Positions 21,646-59,754 of a DNA stretch of 64,000 nt are shown one piece after another. The notes under the pieces were generated by a model that had not been told where the DNA came from, did no database searches, and worked only from the letters and a program-made list of their open reading frames with translations. Source of the stretch: Escherichia coli (lineage in GTDB: Bacteria > Pseudomonadota > Gammaproteobacteria > Enterobacterales > Enterobacteriaceae); assembly GCF_002854065.1 (NCBI RefSeq), contig NZ_CP024147.1; one strand, given 5' to 3'. Both the position numbers and the translations under genes were made by a program. The stretch's first letter is position 1. Every line of letters starts with the position of its first letter.

Positions 21646-21885
21646 TTAAAATTACAAAGCAAGAAATTATAAGTGAACTGATATTTATTATCATTTGAAA
21701 TGAATTTAACTTAAGCGACAATTATTTGTGACGGTCATTGCAGAAAATAAAAATAATATTATCGTTATAAATTAAAACACATATCGAAATTCGTATAATT
21801 TCAGCAGTTGTTATTTAGAATGATTAACTGGACCGCAACTGAAGCAAGAATATCAGGATGAAGCTTATCGCCTCATCCTGAATGG

Positions 21886-30970: not shown

Positions 30971-31339
30971 CTATACCCCAAAGCTTTCGCCACAGCCACA
31001 TTCATTCTGGGCTTTAGGGTTGTGAAATTTGAATATCTGATTAAGTCCTTCACGAACGAAATCGACTTCCGTGCCATCAATAAACGGCATCGCTTGCAGC
31101 GGGACAAACAGCTTCGCGCCGTCGTGTTCAAACAGCAGATCGTCTTTGTCCGGCTCGCTAACACTGTCGAGCACATAGCCAAAGCCCGCGCAGCCCGTTT
31201 GCTTCACACCTAAGCGCACGCCGACCATACCTGGCTGCTTTGCCACCAGCTCGCGGATGTGGACAGCGGCTGCGGGTGTCAGCGTTAAGCCTTGCCAGGC
31301 GAAATCCTGTGGATTAAAGGTTCCTGAATGCATGTCCAT
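30971..31339 (-). CDS. sufA: Fe-S cluster A-type carrier SufA
   Basis: 122-aa ORF with C-terminal CGCGESF motif; first gene of the sufABCDSE operon. Confidence 0.93.
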
Positions 31340-31383
31340 CGATTTACCTCACTTCATCGCTTTCAGCGTATAACAGCATGTTA

Positions 31384-31402
31384 GTGATAATGATTATCAG
31401 TT
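31384..31402. promoter_or_regulatory. Fur box in the suf promoter
   Basis: GTGATAATGATTATCAGTT matches the Fur consensus GATAATGATAATCATTATC; about 45-60 bp upstream of the sufA start. Confidence 0.65.
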
Positions 31403-31516
31403 CAACCCAGCAAACGCAGGGGCTTTACCGTAAAACATGCTTTTTGCCTGCTTTTAATAAGCATAGACCCTGATGTGTGGGTTAACAGGCACGCTAAGAA
31501 TTAGGTATCTCATTGT

Positions 31517-31536
31517 TAGATAATGATTATTATCTA
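31517..31536. promoter_or_regulatory. Second Fur-box-like inverted repeat in the distal suf control region
   Basis: TAGATAATGATTATTATCTA: 7-bp arms TAGATAA / TTATCTA around GATAAT-like hexamers, about 180-200 bp upstream of sufA. Confidence 0.35.
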
Positions 31537-31621
31537 AGGAGCATTAAGGCTGTGATGAAAAAGAAAAAGTTGTATTGAAAATGACTATTTAAGAGATAGG
31601 TAAAAAAGTGCAGCGTTCAGA

Positions 31622-31690
31622 AATAAGAAAACCCTTAAGTCTGTGCGACACAGGCTTAAGGGTTTCTACCCCATCCGGCGCTTATCTCCG
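31622..31690 (-). ncRNA. rydB: Probable small RNA RydB
   Basis: Minus-strand 17-bp hairpin (31629-31665, one A-C mismatch) followed by UUUUCUUAUUU, at the sufA-ydiH position where RydB is annotated in K-12; the 5' end is estimated. Confidence 0.4.
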
Positions 31691-31887
31691 GCACTCTCAG
31701 TGGCTTAGCTCTTGAAGGGGCGATAAGAATAATCTCATAAAGCTAACCCGCCGTTTTAACACAAACTGCGATTAGTATTATTTTTGAACAATATCAGGCG
31801 GGTAGATAAGCAGTATTAAGAAGGTCATCGAACCTGGACGGAGGTTAATCCAGGTCGATTTGGCGAACTTGCGGCATTAAGTCAGGA

Positions 31888-57215: not shown

Positions 57216-57304
57216 ATGCGTGCCCATTCCTGACGGGATGGGCATTTCTGCGCAACTTGTTGTCTTCTCAACACATTACTGCTTGCTCTGGTCAGCCATA
57301 ATAT

Positions 57305-57323
57305 TGATAATAAGAATCATTGT
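57305..57323. promoter_or_regulatory. Fur-box-like site upstream of ydiE
   Basis: TGATAATAAGAATCATTGT resembles the Fur consensus; 24 bp upstream of the ydiE start. Confidence 0.5.
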
Positions 57324-57346
57324 TATATCAATTATTATTAATTTTT

Positions 57347-59040: not shown

Positions 59041-59754
59041 TTATCGCTGAACCAACGTCGTTATCTGATTTATAGGAACGGCAGGCCACAGGCATCCCTG
59101 GAGAGCATGGAAATCGAAGGGGGTAATCTGTGCCAATATTTCTGCCGTATCAATGCCCCCCGCGATGATGCAATTGCAACAAGGGGAAATTTGCGCCTGG
59201 ATCGCACGAATAAACGGTTCGAAGGAGCGGTGCGTGATTTGTTGCTGAATAAAACTTTTATCCAGCATGACGCGGGTGAAAAGACCATCAAAAACCGCTT
59301 TCATTGTGCTATTGCCTGCTCCCAAATTACCTAACACAAGGGGATACACTTGCGATAAGGATAAAAGACCGCGATTATCTTTTCCTTCATTGAGATGCGG
59401 GTAATTCTCATTAATCAACAGTTCAATAAACGGATATTTTAATAGTTCGCCTGCGTAATTATCCCTGTCTAATAATAATGTAGCCACTTGTGGCGTTAAA
59501 TTAAGCCAGGCAAAGAGTTTATGTTGAATAAAAAAATGTTGGCATGATTTTAGTAATTCCAACTGCTCTGAAAATAATTGCCAATGTTGCTCCTCGGTAA
59601 GTTGCGCTATAACCCGACTCGTCGGGATACGCACCGTGCCATCTTCACTGGAGAAATGGGTAATTAACTCAACGCCGACAAGGACTTGCTGGTTATCTCT
59701 TATCGGCAGGAAATAGCAATCAGAATGATAAAGATTCTCCAAAAAAATCTTCAT
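59041..59754 (-). CDS. ydiV: Degenerate EAL-domain anti-FlhD4C2 factor
   Basis: 237-aa ORF; position between selO and nlpC. Confidence 0.8.
   Translation of the reverse strand: MKIFLENLYHSDCYFLPIRDNQQVLVGVELITHFSSEDGTVRIPTSRVIAQLTEEQHWQLFSEQLELLKSCQHFFIQHKLFAWLNLTPQVATLLLDRDNYAGELLKYPFIELLINENYPHLNEGKDNRGLLSLSQVYPLVLGNLGAGNSTMKAVFDGLFTRVMLDKSFIQQQITHRSFEPFIRAIQAQISPCCNCIIAGGIDTAEILAQITPFDFHALQGCLWPAVPINQITTLVQR

Follow-up and report, generated by a model that had tools for sequence, protein, structure and literature searches.

The question raised by this locus is whether the promoter of the sufABCDSE operon of Escherichia coli is served by one Fur operator or by two. The suf promoter is a textbook example of the integration of iron (Fur), Fe-S status (IscR) and peroxide (OxyR together with IHF). 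According to reviews, activation by OxyR from its site far upstream of sufA depends on bending of the DNA by IHF, and close to the promoter Fur and IscR have overlapping sites for which they compete. The literature they summarise reports IHF occupancy and bending for K-12. The initial annotation of the window (the whole stretch of 64,000 nucleotides analysed) had placed one Fur box over the likely core promoter. It also described a second, Fur-like inverted repeat further upstream, which could be a second Fur site or part of the IHF/OxyR activation region. Both elements belong to the sufA-rydB locus of E. coli and lie in the 321-bp spacer between these two genes, which is the sufABCDSE control region (minus strand) in its standard E. 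coli form: the same DNA is found in 5421 of 5426 complete E. coli genomes, where it is annotated as sufA / ydiH, and over a 400-bp control region strain K-12 MG1655 differs from the window by one base. According to the list of open reading frames, sufB is also encoded on the minus strand near sufA. The genes bounding the control region and the parts of the predicted promoter are:

30971..31339, minus strand: sufA coding sequence, the first gene of sufABCDSE (open reading frame list; RefSeq annotation of identical E. coli DNA).
31661..31721, minus strand: rydB small RNA gene, which delimits the control region on its upstream side (Rfam RF00118, 81.6 bits; K-12 annotates rydB at the corresponding place).
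31371, minus strand: predicted start (A) of sufA transcription, 32 nt ahead of the ATG, placed from the -10 and -35 hexamers.
31378..31383, minus strand: predicted -10 hexamer TAACAT, read from the sequence and invariant across 80 loci.
31400..31405, minus strand: predicted -35 hexamer TTGAAC, read from the sequence, with TTGAA conserved across genera.

The predicted sufA promoter therefore reads TTGAAC, a 16-nt spacer, TAACAT, approximately 38 nt and the ATG. A promoter and terminator scan misses this accepted promoter, which matches at 8 of 12 positions only. The start site, like the occupancy of the region by Fur, IHF, OxyR and IscR, is inferred or taken from the literature; its placement at 31371 agrees with what we take to be the published start.

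For comparison, SufA relatives were gathered with one genome per species, giving 80 enterobacterial loci with upstream DNA. Alignment of the DNA upstream of sufA showed five conserved blocks: the Fur box plus the -10 hexamer (block 1), CCCCTGC...GGGTTGAA beside the -35 hexamer (block 2), CAGGGTCTATGCTTAATAAAAG (block 3, 31473-31451), CATTAT-TATCAATGCATTG (block 4) and CCTATCTC-TAAATAG-CATTTTC-ATACA (block 5, 31599-31565).

Likeness to Fur sites was scored with a symmetric matrix of 19 positions (total information 22 bits), built from the strongest site of each of the 17 clusters marked as footprinted or gel-shifted by Chen et al. 2007 (PMC2189734). Site coordinates were converted to the current MG1655 record and the DNA was fetched; fifteen of the seventeen fell exactly on the expected centre and the other two were 2 bp off. 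The leave-one-out scores of the training sites ranged from 16.7 to 29.0 bits, and footprinted Fur regions held out of the matrix scored 14.8 (fepB), 13.1 (fhuF2, low-affinity), 8.5 (tonB) and 4.8 bits (fur). A cut-off of 10 bits was used, as derived by Chen et al. from proven sites (PMC2189734). The matrix reproduced values of the same study: the proximal site of sufA scored 21.0 bits at -53 from the ATG (predicted there at 21.3 bits and position -53; PMC2189734), a site upstream of ydhY scored 20.7 bits (19.9 bits in Chen et al.), and the cluster just upstream of ydiE was recovered. The classical 19-bp Fur consensus, searched at up to three mismatches, matches the proximal site only and leaves the distal element unmatched, so a position matrix was needed to quantify the latter.

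31383..31401, no strand assigned: proximal Fur operator, 19-mer AGTGATAATGATTATCAGT with a perfect 7-1-7 repeat at 31385-31399 (21.0 bits; 0 mismatches to TGATAATNATTATCA; inverted repeat).

In the proximal element we recognise the known Fur operator of sufA, a conserved site. The sequence GTGATAATGATTATCAG was found at 31384-31400, including the perfect 7-1-7 repeat TGATAAT-g-ATTATCA (TGATAATgATTATCA, 31385-31399), and the site is the top Fur-matrix match of the 64-kb window. It fills the 16-nt spacer between the predicted -35 and -10 hexamers. The box is kept in 79 of the 80 Enterobacteriaceae loci, with 0-2 mismatches to the 7-1-7 repeat and scores of 18-27 bits. Relative to the ATG it is centred at -53 to -56, or at -42/-43 in L070 and L072, for which the start codon is not certain. 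The element thus unites a match at the level of bound sites, overlap with the predicted core promoter and conservation in orthologous promoters, and together with the score and position of Chen et al. this bears out the Fur box that had been placed over the core promoter. When iron is sufficient, a Fur dimer on the perfect 7-1-7 repeat would occupy the -35/-10 spacer and there would block RNA polymerase as well as the adjacent IscR activator site. The exception among the 80 loci is that of Intestinirhabdus alba (L057), where the sole strong Fur box (27.6 bits) is located at -151 and none is found at -55; its position suggests a different gene start or an insertion.

31516..31537, no strand assigned: distal Fur-like element, a perfect 9-4-9 inverted repeat, TTAGATAAT-GATT-ATTATCTAA (inverted-repeat search; Fur matrix 14.0 bits).

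Both elements were found where the initial annotation had located them, and their separation, put there at about 130 bp, measures 133 bp from centre to centre (31392 to 31525). The distal 20-mer TAGATAATGATTATTATCTA occupies 31517-31536 and occurs once in the window, against an expectation of 0 from shuffles. Its arms had been described as 7 nt long; they are in fact perfect over 9 nt (TTAGATAAT at 31516-31524 and ATTATCTAA at 31529-31537), with a 4-nt spacer. Perfect inverted repeats of at least 9 nt with a spacer of up to 10 nt occur in 2.2% of random 321-bp sequences of the same composition. The Fur matrix gives the element 14.0 bits when centred at 31525 and 6.8 bits in a second register at 31528, 3 bp off. 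The resemblance to a Fur box is real and not trivially a product of chance: the score of 14.0 bits ranks seventh among the approximately 64,000 positions of the window, and random 321-bp sequences matched in composition contain a site scoring 14 bits or more with a probability of 0.0015-0.0075.

This resemblance is the part of the proposed second Fur site that holds. It would fit a genuine low-affinity, Escherichia-specific operator, at which Fur, under iron sufficiency, would exclude IHF, prevent the DNA bend and veto activation by OxyR; we regard such an operator as unlikely on the evidence given below. The distal score is below those of all 17 strong training sites, and at 14.0 bits (window) or 11.2 bits (K-12) it is within the range of the held-out footprinted sites and above the 10-bit threshold of Chen et al. 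(PMC2189734). The fhuF promoter provides a precedent, as it carries two separate Fur clusters of 22.3 and 14.6 bits, the weaker of which was weakly protected at 50 nM Fur (Chen et al., PMC2189734). A strong site of about 22 bits accompanied by a second one of about 13-15 bits tens of bp away is a likeness shared with suf, and fhuF shows that weak sites of this kind can be bound in vitro. The fhuF clusters, however, lie around the promoter and start with several walkers each, whereas the distal suf site lies 133 bp upstream of the proximal one and overlaps a predicted IHF site. A review reports that in a fur deletion strain H2O2 outdoes an iron chelator as inducer, which is compatible with a distal Fur operator and not specific to it.

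The geometry of the element argues against binding by Fur. The canonical 19-bp Fur box GATAATGATAATCATTATC is said to have been read as a 7-1-7 repeat by Baichoo and Helmann 2002, and the proximal element is a perfect 7-1-7 repeat of 21 bits. The distal element, in contrast, matches the last 13 nt of the 19-mer at 12 of 13 positions and has five mismatches to the whole. Between its half-sites GATAAT and ATTATC lie 4 nt instead of 1, the wrong spacing for one dimer. Read as 7-1-7, it offers two registers 3 bp apart, with two and three mismatches, each of which pairs one good arm with one poor arm. Chen et al. read the box as 9-1-9 ('M9') and found that of Fur sites 3 bp apart one is strong and one weak, with no evidence of joint occupancy, and that real operators usually have partners at 6-bp spacing (PMC2189734). 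A scan with the Fur matrix found no partner site at +/-6 bp of the distal element, so that a second dimer would have no place there.

Its position is equally unlike that of a Fur operator. The distal element lies at -145 to -166 from the predicted sufA start, away from the core promoter. Fur sites of E. coli are tightly clustered on promoter elements and upstream sites have been argued to be uncommon; moreover, the table of strong clusters gives sufA only the -53 site (Chen et al., PMC2189734). Neither half-site geometry nor position relative to the promoter thus upholds the proposed second Fur site. To our knowledge, the published K-12 footprints report one Fur site, which also counts against a distal operator.

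The following elements were identified around the distal repeat and towards the promoter:

31506..31518, minus strand: predicted IHF core TAACAATGAGATA (7 of the 9 specified positions of WATCAANNNNTTR; position conserved).
31560..31599, minus strand: OxyR-type block CCTATCTCTTAAATAGTCATTTTCAATACAAC (CTAT-N7-ATAG-N7-CAAT), conserved across genera, at -189 to -228 from the predicted start.
31406..31427, minus strand: conserved block AAAGCCCCTGC...GGG adjoining the -35 hexamer (column conservation; position of an IscR type-2 site).

The IHF core consensus WATCAANNNNTTR falls within block 4, at -180/-181 relative to the ATG. At the orthologous position this consensus has no mismatch in about half of the loci outside Escherichia and at most one in nearly all. 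The core lies between the OxyR-type block upstream and the IscR, Fur and promoter elements downstream. The distal repeat shares 3 nt with the upstream end of the core and runs 19 bp further upstream, and these 19 bp (31519-31537) hold only three G/C bases, as in the A/T-rich tract upstream of an IHF core; CATTAT is kept across genera. As in other IHF sites of the type seen at lambda H' (core WATCAANNNNTTR plus an upstream A/T-rich tract), the core has a fixed position, is A/T-rich upstream and stands between activator and promoter. It differs from them in that the Escherichia core has two mismatches and in that the arm forms a perfect palindrome, for which IHF has no requirement. At lambda H', approximately 35 bp are wrapped around IHF, with the core in the downstream part. 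If the same geometry applies here, as we assume, the wrapped segment would be approximately 31503-31537, with the whole palindrome inside it.

The OxyR-type block shows the CTAT-N7-ATAG-N7-CAAT phasing typical of OxyR sites. A strict four-element OxyR pattern at up to three mismatches has no match in the window, and the assignment of 31560-31599 to OxyR is putative, based on conservation, position and literature. The distal element is without ATAG/CTAT phasing and at least 22 bp away from this block. Hence, where the repeat had been proposed to belong to the IHF/OxyR region, the overlap of 3 nt with the core favours IHF, whereas the distance speaks against OxyR. A Fur-matrix match of 9.9 bits was also observed inside the OxyR-type block (31574-31592).

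These elements agree with the known K-12 sufA promoter (Fur, IscR at ORE-III, IHF at ORE-II and OxyR at ORE-I): it is the same locus and the blocks line up. The promoter reportedly comprises ORE-I (OxyR, -236 to -197), ORE-II (IHF, -156 to -127) and ORE-III (-56 to -35), and the factor acting at ORE-III was later shown to be IscR. Once the start is set at 31371, the computed blocks fit these positions. The OxyR-type block presumably overlaps ORE-I, the predicted IHF core (-135 to -147) presumably sits in the middle of ORE-II, and 31406-31427 is presumably the published IscR type-2 site ORE-III, reportedly mapped by Lee et al. 2004 and Yeo et al. 2006. The three ORE positions are said to come from Lee, Yeo and Roe 2004, and the K-12 architecture as a whole reportedly from that work and from Outten, Djaman and Storz 2004, Yeo 2006 and Lee 2008. 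A review likewise places an IscR type-2 sequence within the -35 region of sufA.

We therefore read the distal element as the A/T-rich upstream arm of the known IHF site (ORE-II) and most likely not as an independent operator, with a probability of roughly 0.6. IHF would recognise the core at 31506-31518, wrap approximately 35 bp including the whole palindrome and bend the DNA, and the bend would let OxyR, about 200 bp upstream at 31560-31599, reach the promoter. The Fur-box look of the element is best explained as a lineage-specific by-product: an IHF flank of ATTAT followed by WATCAA would resemble half a Fur box, and where the unconstrained upstream flank of Escherichia reads GATAAT it would complete a palindrome. 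What counts against the IHF reading is that the Escherichia core has two mismatches and that the Fur score is at the level of weak operators and above the 10-bit cut-off (P<0.01).

Comparison of the 80 orthologous promoters showed that the distal element is not conserved as a Fur operator would be. At the orthologous place the Fur score is 7.1-14.0 bits in six Escherichia sequences, and outside Escherichia L050 (18.1) and L063 (11.0) are the only loci that attain 10 bits. In the other 72 loci the best upstream Fur score, among site starts scanned from -300 to -110 relative to the ATG, is -2.4 to 9.8 bits; a baseline above zero is no surprise, as ATTAT plus WATCAA already makes up half a Fur box. 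The proximal Fur, IscR, IHF and OxyR elements, unlike the distal site, are conserved outside Escherichia. Within the distal repeat the core-proximal arm CATTATC is kept between genera (column conservation 0.7-0.9), and the distal arm TAGATAA is poorly conserved between them (0.3-0.5). The distal arm varies even within Escherichia, reading TCCGATAAG in E. albertii, TTCGGTAAT in E. whittamii and TTTGATAAT in strain E1V33. On the side of a Fur operator, the six Escherichia sequences all keep 7-14 bits at the distal place while their IHF core is weakened compared with other genera.

The core is degenerate, with two mismatches (TAACAATGAGATA), in all six Escherichia sequences, and WATCAANNNNTTR is perfect at the same position in many loci of Citrobacter, Salmonella, Enterobacter and Klebsiella; in Escherichia a weaker core goes together with a more Fur-like flank. 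In L050 (Enterobacteriaceae bacterium UBA5654) a Fur-like 19-mer of 18.1 bits, AATATTATTTATTATCAAT, lies over a perfect IHF core at approximately -183 from the sufA ATG, apparently a second, independent instance of an IHF flank resembling a Fur site.

31526, no strand assigned: frequent A/G polymorphism within the 4-nt spacer of the distal palindrome; A in the window and G in K-12 MG1655, the only K-12 difference in 400 bp.

The centre of the distal element is also polymorphic within E. coli. Counted as exact 61-mers, the A allele is present in 1977 of 5414 complete E. coli genomes (36%), O157:H7 strains included, and the G allele in 3259 (60%); the remaining 178 carry some other change in the 61-mer. 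A C at this position, seen in locus L002, had no exact 61-mer match in the 5414 genomes, and in effect the polymorphism comprises A and G only. With G, the distal Fur score drops by 2.8 bits, from 14.0 to 11.2, so that the window, which has A in the flank of the IHF site, is more Fur-like than K-12. Since E. albertii, E. whittamii and L006 carry the base of the window, A is probably ancestral, in which case the commoner allele in E. coli, G, would be the one that weakens the Fur match. Such a pattern would be expected of an A/T-rich flank under little base-specific constraint and not of a maintained operator.

Were the distal element a Fur operator all the same, its veto would add to the occlusion at the proximal box and the A/G difference at 31526 would tune the effect between strains, a possibility we hold to be doubtful. 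More improbable is an allele-dependent form of this proposal, in which an Escherichia-specific weak Fur operator lies in the DNA wrapped by IHF and iron-loaded Fur competes with IHF and so vetoes OxyR. If this were true, about one third of E. coli strains (those with A at 31526, including the window and O157:H7) would couple iron to peroxide induction more tightly than K-12. All published suf footprinting was reportedly done in K-12.

The palindrome could instead be a separate upstream promoter or the operator of another dimeric regulator, which we consider very unlikely. A perfect 9-4-9 repeat has a chance of approximately 0.02, and the promoter scan found a -10 hexamer GATAAT (31534-31529) with a -35 hexamer ATCACA on the minus strand, matching at 9 of 12 positions. 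A genomic SELEX peak of a minor-sigma holoenzyme has also been mapped to the sufA-rydB spacer, at K-12 v2 position 1762570, near window position 31499 (PMC5493296). However, the scan gave two promoter-like sites where shuffles would give 1.4, the upstream arm varies even among Escherichia species, and comparison by eye with the consensus sequences of ArgR, Zur, NsrR, Fis and Lrp, a weak test, gave no match. A role at the RNA level was considered and set aside, as the hairpin would consist almost entirely of A-U pairs and its sequence precedes the transcription start. Looping by Fur between the two sites was likewise set aside as unlikely: 133 bp correspond to approximately 12.7 helical turns, which puts the sites out of phase, and the IHF bend lies between them.

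With the distal element read as the arm of ORE-II, the feature is already known biology: known parts of the suf promoter are re-identified and the picture of the promoter is unchanged. As the flank of this IHF site is as Fur-like as some footprinted weak operators, matrix-based scans for the Fur regulon will flag it. The A/G polymorphism, which separates K-12 from about a third of sequenced E. coli, provides a cheap natural test of the role of the flank in IHF or Fur binding.

One further conserved block lies between the promoter and the IHF site:

31451..31473, minus strand: conserved block CAGGGTCTATGCTTATTAAAAG without a matched element (conservation approximately 0.9-1.0 in 75 non-Escherichia loci).

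In the 75 non-Escherichia loci this block, CAGGGTCTATGCTTA(A/T)TAAAAG, equals the Fur box and the -10 hexamer in conservation. It is situated approximately 80-102 bp upstream of the predicted start. We take it to lie outside the Fur, IscR, IHF and OxyR elements. It reads as an extended -10 element of the sigmaS type (KCTAYRCTTAA), TCTATGCTTAA in most genera and TCTATGCTTAT in E. coli. In Salmonella an RpoS ChIP peak, without an RpoD peak, has been found upstream of sufABCDSE (PMC11548764), and the minor-sigma SELEX peak near 31499 (PMC5493296) is a second hint from the literature. An imperfect inverted repeat, ATGCTTTTT / AATAAGCAT (31437-31464; 9 nt, 89% complementary, 10-nt spacer), overlaps the block, and its right-hand arm is not conserved outside Escherichia.

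At the other end of the control region, an inverted repeat with 12-nt arms, CTTAAGTCTGTG / CACAGGCTTAAG, extended by GGG/CCC, is located at 31634-31660. On the minus strand it lies directly downstream of rydB and is followed by TTTTCTTATTT, and it is shared by Escherichia and part of Citrobacter. This repeat looks like a rydB terminator that would insulate the suf control region, but it was not among the calls of the terminator scan.

Elsewhere in the window, the Fur matrix matched a site of 20.7 bits at 21677-21695, approximately 250 bp upstream of ydhY, and a cluster of 9.2-15.4 bits at 57303-57342, just upstream of ydiE, both of which are in the list of Chen et al. 2007 (PMC2189734). A match of 16.5 bits at 59724-59742 lies, by collinearity with K-12, approximately 20 nt inside the 5' end of rflP (ydiV).
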